Below are positions 2,999 to 31,321 of a stretch of 32,000 bases of DNA, one piece after another; positions within the stretch are counted from its first letter, which is position 1, and each line of letters begins with the position of its first letter. Both the position numbers and the translations under genes were made by a program. Source of the DNA: Promethearchaeota archaeon (GTDB lineage: Archaea; Asgardarchaeota; Lokiarchaeia; Sigyniarchaeales; SOKP01); assembly GCA_030606485.1 (NCBI GenBank), contig JAUWGH010000002.1, forward strand, positions 330,001-362,000, given 5' to 3'. The notes beneath the pieces are model-generated. The model saw only the letters and a list, made by a program, of their open reading frames with translations, was not told where the DNA came from and did no database searches.

Positions 2999-3832
2999 AT
3001 GGATATTCAAGTATCAAAGTTACGAGAAGATTTTACTGATAAACACTATTTAATCACCACATCAGATAATATAATTTTGTTTTTAAGAGCATGGGAACCT
3101 CCTAAAAAATCTAACAAGGCAATTCTGATTCTACATGGTATAACAGCTTATAGTGGGCCGTATGAAATAATGGGTAAGAATTTATCAAAGTTGGACTACA
3201 CCGTATTTGGGTTAGATTTGAGAGGACATGGATTATCAGATGGAAAAAGAGGTGATTATCCAAGTAGAAAGAGATTAATTATGGATCTTACTGAGACAAT
3301 AGCTTTTTTAAAGCAGAAATTTTCAATACTTATCTTATTAGGTCATGGTTTGGGTGTTTTATCCGCCTTCATTGCTCTTAATTATTGTTTAGAAGATATT
3401 AATGGCCTAATACTTATGAGTGTTGGAACGGAGAGAAAACCTGGAGTATATACTCAATTATCAATTAAAGAAAAACTAAAAATTCAATTTAGTTCAATTT
3501 TTTCCCCAAGTAAGCCAGTTATATCATATAAACGCGATGGTATGATTGGTTTAGATGATCCACTATTCAATTTTAAGTATACACTTCGTTTTATGAAAAT
3601 ATTTAAAATATTTGATGCAAAAAGTCTAAAAACGACCGAGAAATTAAAGATTCCTATAATTCTTGGAGTTGGCGACCAAGATCAAATTTTTACTGTTGAA
3701 TCGGCTCAGAAATTATTAGATGAAATTCCCGGCGATAACAAAAAATTTTTTGTAATATCAGGTGGAACTCACACTGATTTTCCCGAAGAAGGGTTTGTAC
3801 CTCTTATAAATTGGCTAGAAGAAACTTTTTAA
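2999..3832 (+). CDS. Alpha/beta hydrolase, lysophospholipase/monoacylglycerol lipase-like; nucleophile Ser replaced by Gly
   Basis: ILHG, GLDLRGHGLSDGKRG, GHGLG (expected GHSLG), G..D..F for the acid residue, GGTH for the His. Confidence 0.9.
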   Translation: MDIQVSKLREDFTDKHYLITTSDNIILFLRAWEPPKKSNKAILILHGITAYSGPYEIMGKNLSKLDYTVFGLDLRGHGLSDGKRGDYPSRKRLIMDLTETIAFLKQKFSILILLGHGLGVLSAFIALNYCLEDINGLILMSVGTERKPGVYTQLSIKEKLKIQFSSIFSPSKPVISYKRDGMIGLDDPLFNFKYTLRFMKIFKIFDAKSLKTTEKLKIPIILGVGDQDQIFTVESAQKLLDEIPGDNKKFFVISGGTHTDFPEEGFVPLINWLEETF

Positions 3833-9568: not shown

Positions 9569-10162
9569 TTAAGAAAAAATTCCACTTAATTTATTTAGTA
9601 GAGTAATAGCTCTTGTGGGATTAAAAATTCCGCACACACAAGGTTTTAATAATTTTTTTGCTGCATTTTCAACAGAAATTTTTCCACTTTTAATTAGTTC
9701 CACATAATATTTTACAGATTGGGGAGATATACAATGATGACCGCACATAGTAGTAATTTCCAATATTTCTTCAGAAGGTAAAAGTCCTTTTCTCCCAAAT
9801 GTACCTAATGAAAGATGTATGGTATGCATTTTCAAACCAGTCTCTTTAACTGCTTCTTGGATTTCGGAAATTAATCCACTAATTACTATCGAAACACCTA
9901 AATCTTCTTGCTTAAGAGTTTGTATAACATTCTTAACCATTTCAATATCAATAAAGGTTGCTGTAATTACTGGAGAAATCTTCCATGCAGGTTTCGGTAT
10001 AATATTTACAGGATTATTTTGATTTAATATTTCAGCTACTCGTAATAGTTTTTGTTTTGCATCCGGGTATTTATCGTTTATTCCAGCTGCAAGCATTGCT
10101 AAGATAATGTAATCACTCTTTAAATCGTTTATTTTTCCCGTTCTATGTAAAGAATGTGTCAC
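9569..10162 (-). CDS. Conserved hypothetical Cys/His-motif protein, partner of the upstream 4Fe-4S protein
   Basis: GTG start with GGAGGA 9 nt upstream. Motifs: MTHSLHR, TTMCGHHC and PCVCGIFNP.RA. It starts 21 nt after the ferredoxin-domain gene. Confidence 0.8.
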   Translation of the reverse strand: MTHSLHRTGKINDLKSDYIILAMLAAGINDKYPDAKQKLLRVAEILNQNNPVNIIPKPAWKISPVITATFIDIEMVKNVIQTLKQEDLGVSIVISGLISEIQEAVKETGLKMHTIHLSLGTFGRKGLLPSEEILEITTMCGHHCISPQSVKYYVELIKSGKISVENAAKKLLKPCVCGIFNPTRAITLLNKLSGIFS

Positions 10163-10171
10163 ATCCCTTGA

Positions 10172-10177
10172 TCCTCC
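10172..10177 (-). promoter_or_regulatory. Shine-Dalgarno site (GGAGGA) for the GTG-initiated gene at 10162
   Basis: Minus strand reads TAA-ATTTAC-GGAGGA-TCAAGGGAT-GTG. Confidence 0.65.
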
Positions 10178-10183
10178 GTAAAT

Positions 10184-10885
10184 TTATACCTTGCCTAAAC
10201 CTATATTAACTTTAGCATTTGGTCTTACTGAAAATTCCTGTTGAGTTAGTAAATCAAGTATTGGAATCGCCCCATCTTTCATTACTTGGGAAATAACACC
10301 TACTGTAAATACGGTATCAATATTTTTTTCTATTTGTTTTATCGCTTGTAAGACCAAAATCGCTTTATTTAAAGGCACTTTAAATTCAATAATTGCAGAA
10401 AGAACACGTTCTTCTTTTATATCTTTCTTAATATGCCCACTATCATCAATTAAAAGTGCTGAAACAGGACTTTCCCTTTCAAAATTTACACCAATAGATG
10501 TTAATTTCGTCGTAAATAATTCTATATTTCCAAGATGAGTTCCTACCCCAGGTCGTCCAATTTCAATAGAAAAACCGATTTCATCCACACCAAAACGATT
10601 GGTTACATCGTTAGTTTTCATCTCTTCTGTCCCTCTTCCGGGTATTCCTGTTAGTCTATGAGTAGAAATTACATCACTAAAGGGACTTCTAATCACTCGA
10701 GGCCATTTTAATCGTCTGGATCTAATTGCATTGACGGGACAATCAGCATTCCTTTTACAAATAGAACATTCTACACAGAGATTCTTATCAATAACTGCAA
10801 TATTATCAATTAATTTGATCGCCTGAACGGGACAAATAATGACGCACTGTCCGCACCCTATACAAAGATCAGCTTTTATTTCCAT
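10184..10885 (-). CDS. 2x[4Fe-4S] ferredoxin-domain protein with a conserved C-terminal domain of unknown function
   Basis: [12 protein letters not shown] and [14 protein letters not shown], followed by the motifs [13 protein letters not shown] and EIGRPGVGT. Confidence 0.85.
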
Positions 10886-10896
10886 TGCATTAATTC

Positions 10897-12195
10897 CTAT
10901 TCTTGCTTTACTTCATTCTTTTTCTTCTGTCTAGATTTAATTTTATCTATGTCTCGAGGCAAAAATTTAAAAATTGGAATTAAAAGTAAATTACTTAATA
11001 AAGCCATAATAGCTAATATAACGTAAGCAGGTCTATATTGATTATTAAAAAATACAAATAGCTGTCCAACCATCAATAAACTTATACTTCGACCAATGGT
11101 GATTGTTAATAAATAATTTAGCGAATAAATAGTTGATCTAATTTGAGGTGGATTAATTTCTCCGAGTGTTGCTTGAGTAAGTGGATCTATACCCCCAAAA
11201 AAGAAAGCACCTGAAATTGTAAGAAGAAGGAATATAATAACCATTAAAATTTCAGTAGATGTAAAAACCAATGAAAATGCTACAATATAAAAAAGTGATC
11301 CAGTTATGAGACAAACCAGAACCATTTTCATTCTTCCTTTTTTGTTTTTTTCATAGCTTTTATCACCAATATATCCGAAAAGGGGTCCACTCGGAATTTG
11401 ACTTCCAAAAATTATAATTAAAAAGATGGTTGCAATTGTGGAGCTAAACTGGTAATCATTTTTCAACATCGCAATCAAAAGGGAGGAAATAGCACCTATT
11501 GCTATAAACATTGCAAAATTAAAACATAATATTAAGAAAATCGATTTAATTTTCCAGATTTGCTTTAAATCTTTAATTCTAATTTTATAACTTAATCCGA
11601 GAAAGCTTTCATCTAAAGTTTCATATAATTTGTCCTTTGCTCCTCTTAATGGTTCTTTAACTGTAAATAATAATATTGAACAAACAAATCCACCAATTGA
11701 AACCACAATAAAAGGTACAATCCATGGACATACCTCAATTAAAAATCCTGAAAGAAATTGACCTAAACCATTACCTAAAACATAAACTGCACTTAATAAG
11801 CCAAATTTTTTCCCTCGTTCTTTCATATCACTTAAATCAACTAATAAAGAGTATGTTAGAGGTATAGCAGCCCCAAAACCTACTGCAGTAATTAGTTGAT
11901 ATATTAATAAAGAATAAAAATCTGTAGCTAAAGTGGTAATAAGGGTAAAAATTGACCATTCTAAAGTAGCAATAATTAATAATATTTTGCGTGAAAATTT
12001 ATCGCCTAGAATTGCCCAAACTAGCGAAGAAACCGCACCAACTATCAAAAACATAGAATTTATATAAATTATTTGTTCTTCACCTGCTAATCCTAAAGCC
12101 AGTGTAATCTCATTAGCCATAGGAGTTAAAATACTAAAAAGAGTTGATGAAAAAAGTATCAATAATACTAAAATAAAAAAAGAATTTTGCTTCAT
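10897..12195 (-). CDS. MFS transporter
   Basis: 12-TM pattern, motif A (LGDKFSRK) and its second-half equivalent (GYIGDK). Confidence 0.93.
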
Positions 12196-20817: not shown

Positions 20818-23514
20818 TTATCCATAAAGATTTATCTTTTTAACAATAAATCTTATGAATCTACGAGCAAGATGATACATTAAGAGACCCAATAGCCCAA
20901 AGTGATGTTTCAACGCCCCAAGGGTAGAATATATATAGCTTATTGCGCCAAAATAATCTTGTGTTAATGAATACTCGCCTTTTAAAAGATCTGGTTTTAT
21001 TATATCTCCGTTTAGATTCGGAGGACGACCAAATGATTTTACCTTACTCCAGCGCTTATCACTAAAATCGATTTGAGACCATGAATCATTACTAAATTCC
21101 TCTTTTTTATAGCAAACCCATGATTTATCAGAGTAAAATTCTTGTATAGAATTATTATCCAATAAAATTTGACCAAAAATATTAAAAGCTCCTCCAAAAC
21201 CTTGATAATTTATACCCTTTATAGCTATTACATTGTTCCCTTTTTTTAGTAAATAAGTAATATCAAATGTTTTAACTCGTTTTGCGATTGGGACAATATG
21301 GAGCGAAAATCTACTTAAAACTTTCCCGATAATAGTTCCATTTACATATATTTCAATATAATTGCCTGCGATTCCTTGAATAATTGCTTTCTTTATATTT
21401 TGATCAATTTTTATAACCTTTCTAAAATACCTAGGCTTTGGTGGGTTTTCAAATTCTTTTACCCAAATCCACATAGATTCTAAATATGGATCAACAAATT
21501 GTATATTCTGATTGAGTTCTTCTATTTTTTTATTATATGCATTAATGACAAAATCAAAAAGAATGAGAATTTGGTCGAGACAAGGACGTTTTGCAGATCT
21601 AAGCCATAATTCTTCGTATCTATTTTTCAAATAAGTGAATTTATTTTTTATTTCTTCCAATTGTGGGATTATCTTCTCTCTTAACTCATTATTTAAGTCG
21701 TTTGATTTTATTAAATTAGTTATTGATATAGATATTTTAATTTTTTCACTCAAAATCTGAGCCAATTCAGCTCCAAGCTTAATGTACTCAAAATTTTCCT
21801 TGTTAAATTTAACAAAATTCTCAAGTTCTTCATAAATTCTTAGGGATTGAATTGCCATATCTTCCATTAATTCATATTTATCAAAAGGTGGTTTAATTTT
21901 CTCAGAGGTAAATGGATGTTTGAAAAGATACGTAAAAAACAATGGTGGTAATAATATCGAAACCTTTTTATACAATTTTGGCATTGAACTTAGAGTATTA
22001 AACAATTTGAAATAATTTTCAAGATGTTTTTCCTCTAATCCATAAAATAGAAAGCCGTAGGTTTTTACGTTATCTTTATAAATATCAAATTTAGAATTCC
22101 ATGAAACAGCGGCACCTAAGACTCCACCAAAAAGTGTATTATCTCTAAAAGAGTAATAATGTTGATCCCCCCAAATACTATTCAACATACCAATAACGCC
22201 GCGATCTTTGCTATTGACTCCTTGTTTCGTTAAATTGATTATATTTTTACTTGCATGTATATTATCCGGAAAATTTCTGCACCAATTCAACATTGAAGGA
22301 CTTACGATTACTTTAAAACCTGCATCTAATAATTTATCCAAATCTTTATAATAATCCCTTGGAGTATATTCCCAATACATTAATATTATATTTTTATTGA
22401 GATTTTCTAAGATATTTTCATCAGTAATGGGAATATCATGATACATCACAATTTTATCTTTCCCAGCCCCAGTTACCATCTCATAAATTTTATTATAAAA
22501 ATCTATAAGTACCTTCCTCTTTCCCTCCCTTTCTACTAAATCCCTTGACCTTACCGTTCCTAAATCAAAACTCTCATCACATCCGATGTGGAACCATTTG
22601 CTGGAGAATGCCTTACTTAATATTTCTATATAGCTTTTTAAGAAGGGAAATATTTCCGGATTTGAAACATTAACACAGCCACTTCCCGGAAATTCAGCTA
22701 AATTCCAATAATTTTCTATCATAAAAATATTATCTTGATGACCAATACAATTGTAAATAGGAAAGAAGTTTACAAATCTCTCCTTTGCATATTTATCAAT
22801 CTCTTTGATTTCTTCGACTGATAATGCACCCCTATTTTTACCAATATTTGGATAATCAGGATTAATAATCATATCTTGAAGATAACATGGACAAAATGTA
22901 TTCAATTTATAATGGCAATATATTTTTATGAACCGTTTGGCACTTTCAACGGTAAATACTTGCCCTCGAGCAATATCTTCTGTCACGCCTCTCATATCTA
23001 AATCGGGATAATCAATTATTTCAATTTCTGGAAGAATAATGTGTTTTCGATCCTCTTTTTTTTCTGTTAGTTGAATCATATTTTTTAAAAAACCGTTTTT
23101 AAATATTTGAATTAAAGTCTGGACACCATAGAATAACCCCTGATCAGTTTTAGAATAAGTTGCTACCATATTATTCGAAATAATCAACCCATAACTCTCA
23201 TCACCTTTAAGATTTTTCTCATTGATACGATTTTTAAATTGAACACCATTAAATTTTTCAAAAGTGCCAGAATATTCATAATTCAGAGCGCAAAATTGAT
23301 CAAGCGCATCATTTATATCATCTAATATTAATTTAAATTTCTCTGTATTAAAAAAATAAAATTCCGAATCTTCTTTTAATGAATATCCACAATTGTTTTT
23401 ACTATGGATGAGATGCTGAGGTGGTGGAATCAAAATAGGTCTCTCTGAAGATAAATTCTCTAATTTTTCAAGATTTGTAATAATTAAACCCTTTAAATTT
23501 TTCAAGCAATTCAC
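20818..23514 (-). CDS. GH20-like beta-N-acetylhexosaminidase with an N-terminal zincin-like domain and a C-terminal beta-sandwich domain
   Basis: E.Y.L.I.......YSKT.QGLFYGVQTL.Q, I.DYPD...RG...D..RG, IGHQ, FHIGCDES (catalytic DE pair), MYWEY, SIWGD. The C-terminal domain resembles rhamnosidase N-terminal jelly-rolls (P..RYFRK...I, SDKSW). Confidence 0.88.
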   Translation of the reverse strand: MNCLKNLKGLIITNLEKLENLSSERPILIPPPQHLIHSKNNCGYSLKEDSEFYFFNTEKFKLILDDINDALDQFCALNYEYSGTFEKFNGVQFKNRINEKNLKGDESYGLIISNNMVATYSKTDQGLFYGVQTLIQIFKNGFLKNMIQLTEKKEDRKHIILPEIEIIDYPDLDMRGVTEDIARGQVFTVESAKRFIKIYCHYKLNTFCPCYLQDMIINPDYPNIGKNRGALSVEEIKEIDKYAKERFVNFFPIYNCIGHQDNIFMIENYWNLAEFPGSGCVNVSNPEIFPFLKSYIEILSKAFSSKWFHIGCDESFDLGTVRSRDLVEREGKRKVLIDFYNKIYEMVTGAGKDKIVMYHDIPITDENILENLNKNIILMYWEYTPRDYYKDLDKLLDAGFKVIVSPSMLNWCRNFPDNIHASKNIINLTKQGVNSKDRGVIGMLNSIWGDQHYYSFRDNTLFGGVLGAAVSWNSKFDIYKDNVKTYGFLFYGLEEKHLENYFKLFNTLSSMPKLYKKVSILLPPLFFTYLFKHPFTSEKIKPPFDKYELMEDMAIQSLRIYEELENFVKFNKENFEYIKLGAELAQILSEKIKISISITNLIKSNDLNNELREKIIPQLEEIKNKFTYLKNRYEELWLRSAKRPCLDQILILFDFVINAYNKKIEELNQNIQFVDPYLESMWIWVKEFENPPKPRYFRKVIKIDQNIKKAIIQGIAGNYIEIYVNGTIIGKVLSRFSLHIVPIAKRVKTFDITYLLKKGNNVIAIKGINYQGFGGAFNIFGQILLDNNSIQEFYSDKSWVCYKKEEFSNDSWSQIDFSDKRWSKVKSFGRPPNLNGDIIKPDLLKGEYSLTQDYFGAISYIYSTLGALKHHFGLLGLLMYHLARRFIRFIVKKINLYG

Positions 23515-23640: not shown

Positions 23641-24870
23641 ATGTACGACTATAAAAGTTACAAAGATGTGGATTTAAAGGGAAAAAAGGTCTTAATTCGT
23701 GTTGATATTAACTCAAACATTGACACGAGCGGAGAAAAACCAAAAATAAGGGGCGAATCACCAAGAATTAAATTGATAATTCCTACATTAAATGAATTAA
23801 AAGATAGTGCAGTTGTTTTAATCGCTCACCAAGGAAGACCTGGTGGAAAAGATTTCACCTCATTAGATATTCATGCCGAGCAATTAAGGAGTTTTATCCC
23901 GGATAGAACGGTAAAATATGTCGAAGATATTTTTGGAGAAACCGCTATAGATGCAATAAAACAGTTAAAGCCTGGAGAAATCCTAGTATTAGATAATGTT
24001 AGAAAATTCGATTTAGATACTAAAAGCTTTAAGGATTTTAAAGAAGCTCAACAAACCGAATTAATTCAAAAATTGGCACCTTTATTTGATTATTTCATTA
24101 ATGATGCTTTCGGAGCGGCTCATCGCAGCCAACCCAGTATTATTGGATGGCCCACTCTTTTAGCTGGCCCCTTGATCATTAAAGAATTTGAGTATATGGA
24201 AAAAATTATTGAGAGACCAGAAAAACCAGTTGCAATGTTAATTGGAGGTGCTAAAGCAATTGGAAAATATAAAGCAATGAAATACAACTTTGAAAATGAC
24301 AGACTAGATTACGCATTATGCAGTGGTTTAACAGCAATTCTTATAATGGAAGCGATTGGGATGAATATGGGCTCTAAGAATAAAGATATTATCTCTAAGG
24401 ATTTAGAAACAAACAAAGATGACATTATAGCTACCTATAATAAATTTAAAGATAAGATAATACTTCCAAAAGATTTGGTAATTAAGGAGAATGGGGGCAC
24501 GAAAAATGTCTCAACTGAAGAAGCTGGTAAATACAATACAATTACTGGTGATATTGGTCCAGAAACCGTAAAAGAGTTCTCTGATGTAATTATGAAATGC
24601 AAAACCATTATTGCTAATGGTCCTCCTGGAATTTTCGAAGATGAGGTATTTAGAGATGGAACAAAAGCAATGGTTAAAGCAATGGCTGAAGCTTCAGAGC
24701 AAAACAATGCTCTAACTGTGATTGGTGGGGGCGAAATGGGGCTAGCTGCTGAAATGTTTGGTTATGGTGATAAAGTCTCCTTCATTTCTACAGGTGGCGG
24801 AGCAATGTTAGAACTATTATCAGGAAAAGAAGTGCCTTTAGTTAAAGCGTTTAGAGAGAAAAAACCTTAA
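23641..24870 (+). CDS. pgk: Phosphoglycerate kinase
   Basis: DLKGKKVLIRVDIN, AHQGRPG, LDNVR, NDAFGAAHR, GGAK, ANGPPG.FE, GGG, STGGGAMLELL.G. Confidence 0.97.
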   Translation: MYDYKSYKDVDLKGKKVLIRVDINSNIDTSGEKPKIRGESPRIKLIIPTLNELKDSAVVLIAHQGRPGGKDFTSLDIHAEQLRSFIPDRTVKYVEDIFGETAIDAIKQLKPGEILVLDNVRKFDLDTKSFKDFKEAQQTELIQKLAPLFDYFINDAFGAAHRSQPSIIGWPTLLAGPLIIKEFEYMEKIIERPEKPVAMLIGGAKAIGKYKAMKYNFENDRLDYALCSGLTAILIMEAIGMNMGSKNKDIISKDLETNKDDIIATYNKFKDKIILPKDLVIKENGGTKNVSTEEAGKYNTITGDIGPETVKEFSDVIMKCKTIIANGPPGIFEDEVFRDGTKAMVKAMAEASEQNNALTVIGGGEMGLAAEMFGYGDKVSFISTGGGAMLELLSGKEVPLVKAFREKKP

Positions 24871-24894
24871 AAACAATTTTTAAATATTTACTCC

Positions 24895-24909
24895 TTTTTT
24901 TCGTTTTTT
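24895..24909 (+). terminator. Probable archaeal oligo-T terminator of pgk
   Basis: T7-CG-T6 tract 25 nt after the pgk stop. Confidence 0.45.
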
Positions 24910-24916
24910 AATTTAA

Positions 24917-24994
24917 TCCCCAGAAATTAAAGAGGTACGCTCCCATCCGAATACTTCTATAATTTTTAAGTATTCATCATATGTGTCCTGGGAA
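24917..24994 (-). promoter_or_regulatory. Eukaryote-type SECIS-like element in the 3' UTR of the TGA-containing small ORF
   Basis: Minus strand: UUCCCAGGACACAU-AUGA-UGAAUACUU-AAAAAUUAUAG-AAGUAUUCG-GAU-GGGAG...UUCUGGGGA. It has tandem G.A/A.G core pairs (AUGAU/GGAU), a fully paired 9-bp helix II, unpaired adenines at the 5' side of the apical loop and a GC-rich lower helix. Confidence 0.8.
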
Positions 24995-25015
24995 ATATTT
25001 TATATATTAGATTTT

Positions 25016-25165
25016 TTAGCATCATCCTCCACCATTAGGAGGAGGTTGGAATAAAACCGGAGCGAATATTACTAATATAATTACAATTATTATTATTGCC
25101 GCTATAATTGTACCTAAGATAATAAAATTTTTTTGTTTCCGTTTATCTGCAATATTTTGATCCAT
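25016..25165 (-). CDS. Candidate small single-pass membrane selenoprotein (49 aa, C-terminal GGG-U-C); not in the ORF track
   Basis: Manual translation: MDQNIADKRKQKNFIILGTIIAAIIIIVIILVIFAPVLFQPPPNGGG(TGA 25024-25022)C(TAA 25018-25016). There is an alternative in-frame ATG at 25171. A SECIS-like hairpin lies directly downstream. Confidence 0.75.
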
Positions 25166-25204
25166 AACCATACACTTTATTTTTTAGACTTAATTAATCT
25201 AATT

Positions 25205-25240
25205 CAAATTATATATTTCCATTAAATTTTTATAAAATTA
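25205..25240. promoter_or_regulatory. Candidate TATA/BRE elements of the divergent promoter between the small Sec ORF and the multi-Ubl gene
   Basis: Minus strand GGAAATATATAAT lies about 40 nt upstream of the small ORF. A palindromic TTTTATAAAA sits at 25228-25237. Confidence 0.3.
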
Positions 25241-25298
25241 CAATAATAAAATAATTCAATTATTTAAGTTAAATTTAAATCGATGAGAGAATATTAAA

Positions 25299-27137
25299 AT
25301 GATTAGTAAACTTGAATATATAAATGATTTTTCAATAAAGATTGAAGATATAAGTAAAATCTGCTATGATAAATCTACTAAAATATTTTCTGCCGACCTT
25401 TTTGATTTTAAATTTATAGGTCTTTATAGAAAATCGACAAAAATTAGAAAAATCTTGGATGAGCTCTATACTTTATTGATAGACTTACCAGTAAAACGCA
25501 ATGATCTTTTTCTTTTAAATTTAAAAAACTGGAAACCAATCTCTGAAAAAAGTAAAATAAAGAAACTGAATTTGACAAAAAATGATGAGTTTGTATTTGG
25601 AATAAGGTTTAATATTAATATAATCGATGAAAATACTGACCAGCATAAATTATTTAGAGATATTTTCCCTCACAAGATACCTTTTAATATGATTCTACAG
25701 AAATTCACAACAGATGTAGGCATAGATAATAGATCTTTTGAACTTTATGTAAAAGAGAAATCTATGTCTCAGTGGATTTTATTCGAGGATAATGGTGAGA
25801 AACTATTTGAAGATATAATAAGTGAATACGGAAATGTTTTTGAATTACGAATTAAGAAATTCGAATATAAAGAAGAAAAATATCTTGTAATATATTTTGA
25901 AAATAAGTTATCGCCAGAGCCCGAGCTTGTGCCGTTCCCAGTTTTACCTACTTCAACTATAACTGATCTTTTACCCGAATTATCAGAAAAATTTAATATT
26001 CAGCCACAAGATGTATCTATAACAGAAAAATATGGAACTATACTTTCACCAGAAGATTACATGCTGCCAATTAAAGAGTTGAAGGAAAAATATGGAGATA
26101 CGTTTGATATAGTTGAAATCCATTTTGCAGGTGGCGGTCCTCCTCCTCCAAAAGAAAAAGATATGTTTATCGAAGAAATTCATGAGGAAGAGAAGAAAAA
26201 ACTAAGGAAAAAAGCAATGCCTTCAATATTATCACGCCCAGCAGGCCCACCTAAAACTAAAGAAGTTAGTAAACAAGAAGTTCCTAAATTGGCTTCAGTG
26301 AAAGCACCTCCTCTTCCAGAAAGAGCATTATTTAAACGAGATGAAATTCAAATGGAAACTGAAGCTGAGGAAATTGAAGATGTGTTAGCGTATGCACCTT
26401 TAGAAGATCAAGGTATAGAAACTCCCCAATTAATCAGATATGATATCAATATGGGACTCCAATACTACTCAGTGATGATGGAACAGTGTAGTTATTTATT
26501 TTATATATATTTTTCTCATGAAGAATTAATAATAGAAGATGAGGATGGTAAAACAATAGTTAAAACGAAATTTACAATAGAAACAACTAAAAAAGAGCCC
26601 CCAGTATTAGACGTTAGAGTAGAAGGAGAAGGTTTCGAAGTTCATCCTCTTATTGCTAAACTACTTGTTAAAAAAGAAGCCGTGAACCCACCTCTTATGA
26701 TTTTTTCAGTTCTCCCTATAAAAGCAGACAAAAAAGAAAACAAGAAAAAAGATAAAGAACATACTGATACTCGATTTTTGCATGTGCTCATTGATTTTGA
26801 GGATAAAATTATAAACCACACAGTTTTAGCGATAATTGTCCAACCCAAACATTTTCACTTAGATCTTGGACCCATACATATCGATATTGGTAAAACAACT
26901 GCCACTTTTATTTCCTTAATTTCATTAGCCTGGGCAGTGATCTCAGTAATATATTCCCTCATATCTATTGATTTATCATCCACTCTATTTAATGTAGTAG
27001 GGGGATTCACTCCCAGCCTAATATCCATTCTATTTGTCGTCATTTTCTTTTACACATTAATTAAAGGAGTTTATCCACTCAAAAGAATGTGGAGTAATAC
27101 TCTTAATTTCGATAAGACTTCACCAATTTCAAAATAA
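25299..27137 (+). CDS. Membrane-anchored protein with 2-3 tandem ubiquitin-like (beta-grasp) domains, internal Gly-Gly, Pro/charge-rich linker, beta-rich domain and 2 C-terminal TM helices
   Basis: Residues ~195-280 fit a Ubl pattern (V.P.STITDLL..L...F.I.P.D..I....G.IL...D....I.EL...YGDTF.IV...AGGG). Residues ~103-187 repeat it (YGNVFEL). Residues ~30-102 may be a third copy. GGG is at 26130-26138 and is followed by PPPP. Confidence 0.65.
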   Translation: MISKLEYINDFSIKIEDISKICYDKSTKIFSADLFDFKFIGLYRKSTKIRKILDELYTLLIDLPVKRNDLFLLNLKNWKPISEKSKIKKLNLTKNDEFVFGIRFNINIIDENTDQHKLFRDIFPHKIPFNMILQKFTTDVGIDNRSFELYVKEKSMSQWILFEDNGEKLFEDIISEYGNVFELRIKKFEYKEEKYLVIYFENKLSPEPELVPFPVLPTSTITDLLPELSEKFNIQPQDVSITEKYGTILSPEDYMLPIKELKEKYGDTFDIVEIHFAGGGPPPPKEKDMFIEEIHEEEKKKLRKKAMPSILSRPAGPPKTKEVSKQEVPKLASVKAPPLPERALFKRDEIQMETEAEEIEDVLAYAPLEDQGIETPQLIRYDINMGLQYYSVMMEQCSYLFYIYFSHEELIIEDEDGKTIVKTKFTIETTKKEPPVLDVRVEGEGFEVHPLIAKLLVKKEAVNPPLMIFSVLPIKADKKENKKKDKEHTDTRFLHVLIDFEDKIINHTVLAIIVQPKHFHLDLGPIHIDIGKTTATFISLISLAWAVISVIYSLISIDLSSTLFNVVGGFTPSLISILFVVIFFYTLIKGVYPLKRMWSNTLNFDKTSPISK

Positions 27138-27504: not shown

Positions 27505-28554
27505 TTGACAATTTTAGATAGATCAAAGGTTCGTTCCGATGTACTCAAAATTATGGATGCCTACCTTGGTATCCAAAGAAAGGTAAGTGACGAATTTCTA
27601 AAGAAAGAAGAGAATAAGGGGGTTGATTTTGATGCACTTTGGCAAAAAGTGATGGAAGGGAATGAACGTTTTTTTAAAGGAGAAAATATGAGTGGTTTTT
27701 TAACTAAGGATGAGCAGCTCTTTTTGACGAGATTTCATCGATTTGGTACCGAATATGGAGCGAATCTTGTGCAAAAAAGATACCCTATTCCTAAAGATGT
27801 TAAAATAAAGATAATTGATGCGAATGGAGTCCCAGCAGAATGGCAAATAGTTCCAAGCGCAGTAGAAGATAGAGTTTTATTATATCTTCACGGAGGTGGA
27901 TACATAATAGGATCTCCAAATGACCACCGATTACTCACAGTTCAACTAGGAAGGGCTATTAAAATGAGAGTACTGAGCATCGATTATCGTCTTGCACCTG
28001 AATATCCACATCCTGCACCACTGGAAGATTCCATTACTGTTTATAAATGGCTTTTATCAAAAGATATTAAGCCGGAGAATATTATTATCGCCGGAGATTC
28101 AGCAGGAGGTAATTTAACGCTCGTAACACTTATTAAATTACGAGATGATGGAATACCACTTCCTGCTGGAGCAGTTTGTTTATCACCAGTAACTGATTAT
28201 GCAGGCACTGGAGACTCATATTTTAAGAATGCGGAGAGAGATATATTTTTAGCAGATGCCGGGTTGTTTTGGTGGACTGAAGCACATTTAGCAGGAGCAG
28301 ATACTCGGGATCCTTTAGTTTCTCCTCTTTTTGCGGATCTAAAAGGCTTACCACCTCTTTTAATTCAAGCCAGTACAAGTGAAATGCTATATGATGATTC
28401 GAGACTCTTTGTTGAGCGCGCTAAGGCTGCTGGTTTGGATGCAACATTGGAAGTATGGGATGATATGATGCATGTATTTCAAGCTTTTGGATTACCTGAA
28501 TCAAAAGAAGCAATAACTAATATCAGTAAATTTGTACAAACATTATTCATTTAA
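27505..28554 (+). CDS. Alpha/beta hydrolase, hormone-sensitive-lipase-like esterase
   Basis: YLHGGGY, DYRLAPE.PHPA.LED, AGDSAGG, E.LYDD, MMHVFQ. TTG start with AGGAG upstream. Confidence 0.93.
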   Translation: MTILDRSKVRSDVLKIMDAYLGIQRKVSDEFLKKEENKGVDFDALWQKVMEGNERFFKGENMSGFLTKDEQLFLTRFHRFGTEYGANLVQKRYPIPKDVKIKIIDANGVPAEWQIVPSAVEDRVLLYLHGGGYIIGSPNDHRLLTVQLGRAIKMRVLSIDYRLAPEYPHPAPLEDSITVYKWLLSKDIKPENIIIAGDSAGGNLTLVTLIKLRDDGIPLPAGAVCLSPVTDYAGTGDSYFKNAERDIFLADAGLFWWTEAHLAGADTRDPLVSPLFADLKGLPPLLIQASTSEMLYDDSRLFVERAKAAGLDATLEVWDDMMHVFQAFGLPESKEAITNISKFVQTLFI

Positions 28555-28678: not shown

Positions 28679-31321
28679 TTAGATAAGCTCAATATAAATC
28701 TTTTGCCCTTCAGTAAGGGTGATAGAATCAGATAGAACAATTTCAGCAATTTTATACTGATCTAAAAATGAGAAGATCACATTTAAAGGGCTTTTTTTGC
28801 CATCTTGAGATATAATAACACATATATTGCATTCTGTCGGTTGGAAATTACTTAAAGTCTTAAAGTAGATGGATTTTAAATCAATTTTTCCATATGCAAT
28901 AGATATGAAAGCACTGAATTTTCCTTCTGTAATTTTTTGACCTACCTGACCCCATGAAATTCTGGTTATAAAAAAAGTTTCTAAGTTGTTTATATTCATA
29001 CGTGGTTCAAGTGTTAACCGTTTGAGTTCAATTGAATAATTAACTCCTGTTAAGGCGTGAAGTAAAGTCCATGAAGACATAGCTCTGACATAATGATCCC
29101 CACACTCAACTTCGTTCCATGGATTTCGATGTGAACCATCATATCTGTTTCGAATAGATTGAATTATTTTTAAACCATCAGAGATCTTTCCAATAAATAT
29201 ACAAAGTGCGGCGATTTCATATTCGATACCTGTCCATACTTCATCACTGTAATATGTTGGAACATCTGGTTTATTTCCATGTGGCCAAGTGCAGTTCATT
29301 AATGCTGAATCACTTGGAGATGCAAAAATACGCGAAGTTTGTGTGATCCCTTTAAGGGTTTCTTTGAAATTATATTTGATTATGGATTCAATGGCTTTAT
29401 TAACATGTTCAGGTGGAAGTATATATCCGAAACCGAGTTGAAATGCCCACCATTGACCAACGAGTTGATCAGAAAAACAACCAATACCATATTGGAATTT
29501 TTTAATTTCAGTTTCATCAAATTTTTGTATATAGTATTCTCCGTTCCAGCATTCTTTATCGAGAGTTGATTGCCCTGAATTGAAAGTTTTTATTAATTTT
29601 TCCGACCATTCAGATAAGTTTAACTTATTAGCAATCTTTTCACACGCCAAAAGAGAGGTTAAATAGAGAGTGCCAATAAATGTGTTAATCCCGGTAAGAG
29701 AGCAATCATAAGTATTAGGTTGATCGGAATAGATAACTCCATTTAAGTTCTTATCATAGGTGTTAAAGATAAATTTAATTAATTTTTCAATATAGTGCCA
29801 TGATTCTTGAAGAAATTTAAGGTCGTTGGTAATTAAGAAATCCCGATAAATTTTCAGAATCATTCCGAACATTCCATCTATTGCAGGGGGGACATCGCCT
29901 GGATCTGGGATCATTCCAAACTGTGGTAAATATAGAGGAATTACAGAACGATGAGGTAGATATCCATCTTTATTTTGCATTTTGAATTCAGTCTCTCGCA
30001 TCGTCCTTTCAAGCATGGGAAATAAGTGAGCTAAGCTAAACGCATAATTCCAAACATGAGTGCAATCTAAAGGACATGAACCTCCAGATAATTTACCTGT
30101 AGATGCACCATTACATCCTTCGAATCCATGAAACGTTCCATCTCTCATCCAAAAACACGTGGGAGTCCTGATTGTAGAAAACGTAGATGATATGCTAGTT
30201 AATACTTCAGATGGGAGATTACTTGAGAAAAATGCTTCATGAAATTGTTCAGTCTTTTCTAAAAGATATGTCCAATGCTCTCGTGCATATGCGATCACTT
30301 TTAATGAATTACTGAACCATTTATTATAGTAATTTCCAATCCAAAATTCCGTTTGAGTATCAGGTATCATTGCTTTATTTATATTCCAATCAACTACACG
30401 ATTAGGAAAATTCCACGCTAAAATAAATGTTATTACGGCACTCTCTTCGGGATTTAAAATTTTTTTAGTTGCAAGGCTTCCTGCCCATGTTTGGCCAATC
30501 GCACTCATATCTTCAGAGTCAGATTGTGATAATACACCCTCGCGTGAAAAATGAGACCAAAAATCATTCAAATCCCGCCATTGGGTTGTGATTGTTGCTT
30601 CAGACTGATCAATTGCCAATGTTAAATCTCCAAATCTTCTATCTTTTTTTAATATTGTTTTTGATCTCATGTAAATGGCGTGCCAATCACCAATTCGTCT
30701 ATGAACATTAATATTACCACCAAATAAGGGATTAAATTCTCCTTTAATTCGTTTTTCTCCATCCCACCCTAAGAAATTGAGGAGACTACCCATTATAGTT
30801 ATTTCATAGGGGAACTCAGAGTTGTTTTTGAGATAAAATTGAAAAATAATTAAGGGTAAACCCGAATTTTTTGAATCCAAGGGAATGAATGGATTAAAAG
30901 CTACTAATCTAATATTAATCGGGAGTGAATTTTCTTTGAAATTTAAGAAAGAAATGGGATATTCCCCATCAAACTGAATCTCTTCAACACCTGGAAGTAT
31001 TTTGAACATATCTTCCATTGCTGCGGTTATTTTATGATCATTCGTGGTTTTTGGTGGTTTAAAACTAAGATCTTCATGAATATTAGGACAAATTAGAGCA
31101 TGACAATTTATTTTTTCAGAATTATTTCCTACTCTGCGTGTTCCGACCGCAAAAAAACTATTTGGCACAAATGCTGTATGTTTAATAGAATTTGTGATTT
31201 GCCATTGTTTGAGAAAGCCATCACCATCTATAGCAATTGAACCAGTGCCAATACCACCTAATGGCATCGCTGCGCATCGTAGTTTCTTTCCCGTTAATGG
31301 AAGAATTCCTTTTGGTTTCAT
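28679..31321 (-). CDS. GH116 family beta-glycosidase (non-lysosomal glucosylceramidase GBA2-like)
   Basis: MPLGGIGTGSI, GFEGC (nucleophile region), NTYD (acid/base region), DQLVGQW, EVWTGIEY, NPWNEVECGDHYVRAMSSW. Confidence 0.92.
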   Translation of the reverse strand: MKPKGILPLTGKKLRCAAMPLGGIGTGSIAIDGDGFLKQWQITNSIKHTAFVPNSFFAVGTRRVGNNSEKINCHALICPNIHEDLSFKPPKTTNDHKITAAMEDMFKILPGVEEIQFDGEYPISFLNFKENSLPINIRLVAFNPFIPLDSKNSGLPLIIFQFYLKNNSEFPYEITIMGSLLNFLGWDGEKRIKGEFNPLFGGNINVHRRIGDWHAIYMRSKTILKKDRRFGDLTLAIDQSEATITTQWRDLNDFWSHFSREGVLSQSDSEDMSAIGQTWAGSLATKKILNPEESAVITFILAWNFPNRVVDWNINKAMIPDTQTEFWIGNYYNKWFSNSLKVIAYAREHWTYLLEKTEQFHEAFFSSNLPSEVLTSISSTFSTIRTPTCFWMRDGTFHGFEGCNGASTGKLSGGSCPLDCTHVWNYAFSLAHLFPMLERTMRETEFKMQNKDGYLPHRSVIPLYLPQFGMIPDPGDVPPAIDGMFGMILKIYRDFLITNDLKFLQESWHYIEKLIKFIFNTYDKNLNGVIYSDQPNTYDCSLTGINTFIGTLYLTSLLACEKIANKLNLSEWSEKLIKTFNSGQSTLDKECWNGEYYIQKFDETEIKKFQYGIGCFSDQLVGQWWAFQLGFGYILPPEHVNKAIESIIKYNFKETLKGITQTSRIFASPSDSALMNCTWPHGNKPDVPTYYSDEVWTGIEYEIAALCIFIGKISDGLKIIQSIRNRYDGSHRNPWNEVECGDHYVRAMSSWTLLHALTGVNYSIELKRLTLEPRMNINNLETFFITRISWGQVGQKITEGKFSAFISIAYGKIDLKSIYFKTLSNFQPTECNICVIISQDGKKSPLNVIFSFLDQYKIAEIVLSDSITLTEGQKIYIELI

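Follow-up and report, generated by a model that had tools for sequence, protein, structure and literature searches.

Selenocysteine (Sec) insertion sequence (SECIS) elements of a distinct kind, termed lokiSECIS, have been described in Lokiarchaeota for PrxL, VhuU and HdrA-VhuD (Mariotti et al. 2016, PMC4989117). Such an element has AUGA on its 5' side, then a 9-bp stem capped by an 11-nt loop, and then GA (AA in VhuU); the first five bases of the loop are mostly A, and its last position is an ultraconserved G that usually follows an A (PMC4989117). Eukaryotic, archaeal and bacterial SECIS models miss lokiSECIS, and SBP2 is not known in Lokiarchaeota (PMC4989117). Here we describe a hairpin of this kind on the minus strand of a 32,000-nt stretch of a Promethearchaeota archaeon genome (G000:C1:330001-362000, hereafter the window, whose first letter is position 1); the genome is 29% G+C and comprises 3.75 Mb in 13 contigs. 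The hairpin occupies positions 24994-24917, between pgk and a small open reading frame (ORF) with an in-frame TGA. This pgk is most closely related to genes from metagenome-assembled genomes labelled Promethearchaeota or Promethearchaeia, which are Asgard archaea of the Lokiarchaeia type. We put at roughly 0.85 the probability that it is a functional SECIS of the Lokiarchaeota type (eukaryote-like, type I) in the 3' untranslated region (UTR) of a stand-alone gene, where it would recode the UGA at 25024-25022, the product being a very small single-pass membrane selenoprotein.

A sequence-only reading of the window had claimed a SECIS hairpin at 24917-24994 of the minus strand, and each of its parts is found there: AUGA at 24980-24977, the 5' arm of helix II, UGAAUACUU, at 24976-24968, the 11-nt apical loop AAAAAUUAUAG at 24967-24957, the 3' arm of helix II, AAGUAUUCG, at 24956-24948, the GA of the core at 24947-24946, and a lower helix (helix I) in which UUCCCAGGA (24994-24986) forms 9 bp with UUCUGGGGA (24925-24917). 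Helix II consists of one U.G and eight Watson-Crick pairs, as had been claimed, with the U.G at the first of the nine stem positions, which is the N.N pair beside the G.A pairs. The minimum free energy (MFE) fold recovers both the lower and the upper helix, and the lower helix also appears in the centroid fold. Moreover, the element lies on the same strand as the TGA ORF, 35 nt past its TAA and 41 nt past the TGA, and its stem, loop, AUGA and GA agree with every published lokiSECIS criterion. The RNA element is thus of the already described Lokiarchaeota type, and the signal itself is not new.

The hairpin had been called eukaryote-like. That description holds in so far as the element is an Asgard-type SECIS, being an exact fit to the shorter Loki variant; the eukaryotic SECIS model of Rfam does not match it. 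With eukaryotic SECIS of form 1 (Rfam RF00031) the candidate shares the AUGA/GA kink-turn (K-turn) core, the unpaired adenines at the start of the loop and a site in the 3' UTR that acts on an upstream UGA, but its UGA-to-core distance lies under the mammalian minimum and its helix II has 8-9 pairs rather than ~12-15. Membership in the eukaryotic family (Rfam SECIS_1) was rejected on this short helix and on the lack of a covariance match. Rfam searches over the whole window at gathering score and over 24700-25300 at E≤10 found no SECIS family, the latter yielding only sub-threshold snoRNA-like and small RNA (sRNA) noise; both came back empty because existing SECIS models miss lokiSECIS (PMC4989117). 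Compared with lokiSECIS and the Asgard eSECIS-like type I elements (Mariotti et al. 2016, PMC4989117; Huang et al. 2024, PMC11227280), the candidate has the same core, stem and loop and the same 3' UTR location near the stop codon. It differs in serving a gene family outside those described, in the sequence of a second hairpin (see below) and in having, within the window's genus, A-U rather than G-C as the closing pair. It also differs from the lokiSECIS of its own genome in UGA-to-core distance, which is 41 nt for the candidate, ~80 nt for VhuU and ~220 nt for the last Sec of VhuD.

The specificity of the pattern was assessed by a strict scan of both strands of all contigs, which called for ATGA, nine pairs with at most one mismatch, an 11-nt loop that ends in G and has four or five A in its first five positions, and GA or AA. 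Across the 3.75-Mb genome the scan returned five sites with an 11-nt loop: three after HdrA-VhuD pairs, one after VhuU, and the candidate. (VhuD was identified at these sites by Pfam FlpD, with E values of 1e-39 to 5e-41, HdrA by its Fer4 and FAD domains together with three in-frame TGA codons, and VhuU by a D-C-U-x-x-C-x-x-H motif.) When the pattern was restricted to perfect stems with a GA tail, four sites were found in the real genome and none in 80 shuffled genomes, in which composition had been preserved by shuffling within 50- or 200-nt blocks.

Two covariance models were built. Model R1 was made from the four known elements of the genome (the HdrA-VhuD and VhuU SECIS) with 12-nt flanks; the candidate scored 20.5 bits (E 0.014) and was the best match in the window. 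Model R2 was made from 30 elements, namely the four known ones and 26 from the new family described below, all of the latter from other genera, with the window's genus excluded. Under R2 the candidate scored 32.4 bits (E 9e-6 in the window), whereas the best non-SECIS score in the genome was 19.9 bits among the 150 scored of ~10,000-11,000 candidates. The elements of other genera in R2 are orthologous, and the model is thus not fully independent of the family. Note that the window scores come from an unfiltered search; the candidate was not among the matches listed in the whole-genome R1 and R2 searches, in which 150 of the ~10,000-11,000 candidates were scored.

An alignment of 33 Loki-type SECIS elements (A4) indicates which parts of the structure are kept. 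The AUGA, A3-A5, U9 and G11 of the loop and the A of GA are invariant, and the candidate has them all; the core GA as a whole is invariant or nearly so. The inner eight pairs of helix II are paired in 97% of cases, each with changes on both sides, and helix II alone is 91.6% paired. The N.N position beside the G.A pairs is unpaired in 18 of the 33 elements, as expected for a SECIS quartet. Below the core, the closing pair in columns 14/51 is A-U in the window's genus (three rows) and G-C in the other 30, while the pair in columns 13/52 occurs as A-U, U-A, C-G and G-C with 95% of cells paired. Taken over 10 pairs, 97% of cells are paired, double changes are seen at 10/10, and the covariation score is 0.73 against 0.22 in shuffles, with none of 500 shuffles as high; slid registers give only 31-54% pairing. 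In at least four genera the orthologous loci retain both core and stem, with compensatory substitutions.

Because the closing pairs across the 3-nt bulge covary, we read the core as a canonical K-turn, consisting of a closing stem, a 3-nt bulge and tandem G.A/A.G pairs. The K-turn-type core claimed earlier therefore stands, and is better stated as a closing stem of at least 2 bp followed by the bulge and the tandem pairs. On its 5' strand (24983-24977, minus strand), C24983 and A24982 belong to the closing stem, U24981-A24980-U24979 form the bulge, and G24978 and A24977 form the sheared pairs; U24945 and G24944 provide the 3' strand of the closing stem, whose pairs follow from the covariation analysis. 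The closing stem comprises A-U and C-G here and G-C and A-U elsewhere, and we take the odd flanks of the candidate, on the strength of the alignment, to be compensatory changes and not decay. The three-helix shape, that is an enclosing helix, helix II and a small hairpin 3' of GA, is common to the MFE folds of the candidate, the three VhuD elements, VhuU and one member of group g11; the fold of a member of genus g2 has helix II and the second hairpin, with the enclosing helix absent. In the candidate this second hairpin is GGAG/CGUAC/CUCU at 24943-24931 (minus strand), with a genus-specific sequence and in a register that is our own reading. As a side observation, the Loki-type SECIS elements here have a conserved second small hairpin directly 3' of GA-C-U, with the consensus ACC-C-GCAA-GGGU (L036, L037 and L035 at 3035-3060; L038:40-66 (-); family loci, A4 columns 54-67). 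Its position is 87% paired in the alignment, and the parts of the text of PMC4989117 that were searched make no mention of a second small hairpin or an enclosing helix.

The small gene itself spans 25016..25165 on the minus strand and, by ORF translation, encodes 47 residues followed by UGA (Sec, 25022..25024, by sequence and conservation), UGC (Cys) and a UAA stop (25018-25016), its 3' end reading GGA GGA TGA TGC TAA. The protein has a basic N-terminus (KRKQK), one transmembrane helix and a PPPNGGG segment. The true start is probably the ATG at 25165, judging from its conservation in the four genomes of the genus; the upstream ATG at 25171 is not conserved, and the resulting length of 47 residues before the UGA is that of most family members. 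A TATA-like TTTATAAAA at 25228..25236 (minus strand), within a block of the shared divergent intergenic region that is kept in same-genus genomes, is a putative promoter of the small gene. Archaeal transcription terminates at oligo-T runs. Between the stop codon and 24917 the sequence contains no oligo-T terminator, and the first oligo-U runs on the minus strand are at 24873-24869 (5 U) and 24864-24859 (6 U), where they overlap the pgk stop on the other strand; the transcript likely ends at these runs (24873-24859). As with the covariance-model score and the conservation in relatives, the lack of an earlier terminator means that each refuting condition of the sequence-only reading that could be examined turned out in favor of a SECIS. 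Among four RNA or RNA-like runs, one contig covers the end of pgk only and none covers the small gene, a picture that counts neither for nor against its expression.

The locus is present in three further genomes of the same genus (G001-G003) at 92-96% identity, and metagenomes from cold seeps and marine sediments contain its DNA; no RNA run was among the data sets listed for it. Each of the four same-genus genomes retains the ORF with its TGA, a single codon after that and the TAA; the codon after the UGA is TGC in two genomes and GGC (Gly; G002, G003) in the other two. There are two indels, each of 3 nt and in frame. In the hairpin only one base differs, a U-to-C at a position of the loop where known elements vary too. 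In G001-G003 the lower helix stays paired despite changes in its 3' arm, and homology ends just past that arm. In G001-G003, ~560 extra bases stand between the SECIS and pgk, with the breakpoint right after the 3' arm of the lower helix (window ~24915-24880). Since an extra gene separates the hairpin from pgk in these genomes, the hairpin travels with the small ORF and not with pgk. (The ORF of the insert, L065:1055-1333 (-) in G002, encodes 92 residues with the look of a ribbon-helix-helix-like, CopG/antitoxin-like DNA-binding protein; the window genome is without it.)

Beyond the genus, an order-level protein search gave weak matches to small ORFs, each of which on inspection proved to be followed closely by a lokiSECIS. 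Eight members were then combined into a profile, with which 161 genomes of the class were searched. (The genomes compared are metagenome-assembled genomes, and the family counts are drawn from related genomes that are not independent samples.) The profile gave 63 matches at E≤1e-4, of which 62, spread over 61 of the 161 genomes, contain exactly one in-frame TGA; the small ORF of the window matches at E 5e-23 with one TGA. A SECIS was present in all 30 family loci that were fetched, 40-114 nt past the TGA. Family proteins are 49-83 residues long, with an N-terminus of the form M-x-x-K-[IL]-L-x-x-x-R-K-K, one hydrophobic helix, a D/N-rich linker and the motif G-G-G-U-x-C, in which x-C is G-C, P-C, L-C, A-C, S-C, V-C or Q-C; a few members deviate (U-P-G, U-P-S-T-C, U-P-K-P-C, or U-G followed by a stop). 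The U column is nearly invariant and is flanked by G-G-G on one side and by x-C and a conserved hydrophobic tail on the other. In other genera the tail after U-x-C has 14-34 residues, whereas in the window's genus it is lost and the protein ends in U-C or U-G. In g11 the tail shows 29, 13 and 48 changes by codon position, a third-position bias; synonymous versus non-synonymous counts are informative for this tail only, the other groups being out of register or too divergent. Openness after the UGA does not tell the frames apart: 25 of 26 loci are open in frame 0, and 22 of 26 in frame +2. AlphaFold2 run on a tail-bearing member returned a model of moderate quality (mean predicted local distance difference test score of 73), with a confident helix at 9-38, a low-confidence Gly-rich Sec loop and a helix at 50-64. 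One member, in G018 (L069 = G018:C66; ORF L069:1501-1698 (-)), has the TGA, a U-A-C motif, the tail and the SECIS, yet from the upstream stop to the membrane helix it contains no ATG, GTG or TTG. A non-canonical start, a fault of the assembly or inactivity of this copy may be the reason.

Seven selenoprotein families have been listed for Asgard archaea, namely SelD, FrhA/VhuU, HdrA, FrhD/VhuD, Prx-like, AhpF-N and DsbA-like (PMC11227280), and a May 2026 review counts eleven for archaea (PMC13188914); the SECIS-first search of Mariotti et al. gave no further candidates (PMC4989117). The present family falls outside both sets and is undescribed within the literature searched. In public protein collections it appears as 47-residue "hypothetical proteins" ending in GGG, together with a few longer entries that carry W at the Sec position as a result of gene calls with TGA=W. 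A Pfam scan of 28 members at E≤1 assigned them to no family and gave only sub-threshold membrane-helix noise (ETRAMP, Sigma_reg_N and others).

The host encodes a Sec pathway of the archaeal/eukaryal kind (the components sought being tRNA-Sec, SepSecS, SelD and EFSec). The tRNA-Sec was found at 47.1 bits, at the Rfam cut-off, and adjoins SepSecS (E 8e-116); EFSec, at 263.8 bits and over the NCBIfam cut-off, lies ~3 kb from this pair. The gene for SelD, selenophosphate synthetase (L009:1480-2590 = G000:C1:19390-20500), itself has an in-frame TGA within G-U-S-C-K, and its 3' UTR carries its own type-II-like SECIS, with AUGA, a 7-bp helix, an AAA bulge, a mini-stem and GAG, enclosed by AUGAUGAC/GCCAUCAU.

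The distance from the UGA to the core had been put at ~42 nt; measured from the UGA to the A of AUGA it is 41 nt. The minimum UGA-SECIS spacing in mammals is reportedly 51-111 nt (Martin et al. 1996), and the earlier statement that the spacing here is shorter than that minimum agrees with our measurement. In the family as a whole the distance is 40-42 nt in the window's genus, 50-57 nt in most g2 genomes and 93-114 nt in g11 and g3. At 40-57 nt, the UGA-to-core distances of two genera of the family are shorter than any seen so far for a eukaryote-like SECIS. Ribosomes shield ~15 nt downstream. The enclosing helix starts 28 nt downstream of the UGA at 25024-25022, beyond the shielded stretch, and therefore the fold can exist during decoding. 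Nine of the fetched loci also end their ORF with a UGA, which lies 1-3 nt upstream of AUGA or inside it: the stop UGA stands a few nt before AUGA at L076, L078, L080-L083 and L086 and is the UGA of AUGA itself at L079 and L085, and at such loci the Sec UGA lies 53-57 nt upstream in the same mRNA. The same arrangement of a stop UGA at the SECIS has been reported for VhuD and VhuU, where it was read as a minimal-distance requirement (PMC4989117).

We propose that the mRNA would fold into a K-turn, made up of the closing stem, the 3-nt bulge, the tandem G.A/A.G pairs, an 8-bp helix and the A-rich 11-nt loop, which the second small hairpin and the lower helix would frame. This structure might recruit the archaeal EFSec:Sec-tRNASec complex, either directly or through another K-turn binder, as for the HdrA-VhuD and VhuU elements. 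A ribosome pausing at the UGA at 25024-25022 would then insert Sec, add one Cys and stop at the UAA. The predicted product of ~49 residues would have a cytoplasmic N-terminus, one membrane helix and a flexible Pro/Gly tail that ends in -GGG-Sec-Cys outside the membrane, the N-in, C-out orientation being predicted because basic residues precede the helix (the positive-inside rule). The Sec-Cys dyad, which would then sit on the outer side of the membrane, most likely serves as a redox-active selenol/thiol pair, by analogy with known redox motifs.

Several observations weigh against a functional SECIS at this locus. The R1 score of 20.5 bits is at the level of the genome's best background, the score being low because the flanks of the core differ from those of all other elements: A-U replaces the otherwise invariant G-C closing pair, and U replaces C after GA. 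The 41-nt spacing is under the mammalian minimum mentioned above. No Cys homologue at the Sec position was found (66 clusters and 32 representatives, from a search of 5.8 billion clusters and 1.84 billion representatives), and therefore the classic Sec/Cys pair argument is missing. With a single codon after the UGA in this genus, the products of read-through and of termination differ by two residues, and the gene could be decaying. Finally, the genomes of the genus are so similar at this locus (92-96% identity) that selection on the hairpin itself could not show.

The last two points are the substance of the idea that the locus is a relic in the window's genus, in which a SECIS real in origin persists by recent divergence after the C-terminal helix was lost, with the UGA now serving mainly as a stop. 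Only one codon follows the UGA here (Cys, or Gly in G002 and G003) as against 14-34 in other genera, that codon varies within the genus, the flanks of the core have diverged, and the high identity gives little power to see selection. However, the flanks changed in a compensatory manner (G-C to A-U and A-U to C-G at the closing pairs), the invariants of the family, the perfect stem and the enclosing helix are all intact, and the TGA, the one codon and the TAA are kept in four of four genomes with both indels in frame. Moreover, a penultimate or near-terminal Sec works in thioredoxin reductase (TrxR), SELENOK and SELENOS. We therefore regard decay to a relic as unlikely. We consider it still less likely that the K-turn has a function apart from Sec, be it as a regulatory or stability element bound by L7Ae or as a C/D-box-like sRNA, with the TGA merely ending a 47-residue protein. 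L7Ae binds K-turns generally, the AUGAUGA at 24980-24974 fits the C-box consensus, and Rfam gave weak C/D snoRNA-like matches (16.9-20.3 bits, E 3.5-8.4), but these are far under the gathering scores of 43-50 bits, a CUGA D box is absent, and other members of the family do not share the UGAUGA word; an archaeal C/D-box sRNA was rejected on these grounds, the C-box-like word being its only hallmark. The apical loop and stem length are, furthermore, those of the HdrA-VhuD and VhuU SECIS, and the element always stands behind an in-frame TGA flanked by GGG and x-C. As for a chance hairpin in AT-rich intergenic DNA, the 29% G+C content of the genome, the unremarkable folding energy (z = -1.5 to -1.9) and the empty Rfam SECIS searches speak in its favor. 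This explanation is nevertheless next to negligible in view of the lack of pattern matches in the 80 shuffled genomes, the fact that the other strict-scan sites are all known SECIS elements, and the covariation and conservation across genera; besides, existing eukaryotic and archaeal models miss lokiSECIS anyway (PMC4989117).

If the hairpin is a functional SECIS, its host protein invites comparison with known selenoproteins. SELENOK and SELENOS are small single-pass selenoproteins of the eukaryotic endoplasmic reticulum membrane. The protein described here is like them in being very small, with one N-terminal membrane helix, a Pro/Gly-rich tail and a Sec near the C-terminus, and its -PPPNGGG-U-C/G ending resembles the Gly-Gly-Sec-Gly type of ending of SELENOK. 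The Sec tail is, however, predicted to lie outside the cell here, whereas theirs lies in the cytosol, and most members of the family add a hydrophobic helix after U-x-C. The resemblance is probably convergent, as it lacks sequence support and the predicted orientation is the opposite one. Identity of the host protein with the SelK/SelG family was considered and rejected, SelK_SelG being absent among the Pfam families listed for the 28 members at E≤1 (25 of 37). 

Redox dyads of related spacing occur in thioredoxin reductase (-GCUG), Mia40 (CPC) and Erv2 (CGC). As in those proteins, the chalcogen pair is 0-1 residue apart on a Gly-rich flexible segment (U-C here and U-G-C, U-P-C, U-L-C or U-A-C elsewhere), and by analogy this spacing would suit a selenenylsulfide shuttle; in contrast to them, the family is a bare membrane anchor without a catalytic domain, and a few of its members are without the Cys (U-P-G, U-G stop). 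Within the same genome, VhuU (~50 residues) is also encoded by a very short selenoprotein gene with a lokiSECIS right after or overlapping its end, and VhuU and some family members alike use as their stop the UGA of AUGA or a UGA 3 nt before it (PMC4989117). VhuU differs in being a soluble C-terminal piece of a NiFe hydrogenase with a DxUxxCxxH motif, and its SECIS has AA rather than GA after the stem.

The surroundings of the small gene offer no common partner. Its neighbors are glycoside hydrolases (GH20-like and GH116-like) and an alpha/beta hydrolase (window 20818-23514 (-), 28679-31321 (-) and 27505-28554 (+)), a sugar-degradation neighborhood unrelated to selenium. The product of the divergent neighbor at window 25299-27137 (+), 612 residues long, matches nothing in Pfam at E≤0.001. 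This membrane protein adjoins the small gene within the window's genus only, and family neighbors are in general kept only within genera (an FGGY kinase, a TrmB regulator and PepX in g2; pgk and the 612-residue membrane protein in the window genome). Synteny comparison found no operon partner common to the family loci.

The host family is new while the SECIS type is known: a predicted membrane selenoprotein with a G-G-G-Sec-x-Cys motif, present in ~60 of 161 related Promethearchaeota genomes, that gene callers shorten to a hypothetical protein of 47 residues. A family without a Cys form escapes selenoproteome surveys that rely on homology but is within reach of a search that starts from the SECIS. 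The spacings of the family, together with the UGA stops 3 nt before or inside the core, constitute a natural data set for the minimal-spacing rule. A bolder proposal, in our estimation a long shot, would make the family one of Sec-only, Asgard-specific, membrane-anchored U-x-C or terminal U-C peptides of an extracytoplasmic selenol/thiol relay, and the forerunner by descent of SELENOK and SELENOS. If that were true, the natural UGA-SECIS distances would define the spacing rule of ancestral eukaryote-like recoding, in which a UGA 40-114 nt from the core means Sec and one 3 nt before or inside the core means stop. Whether or not that proposal holds, the family provides, in the closest relatives of eukaryotes, a predicted membrane selenoprotein for comparison with SELENOK and SELENOS.

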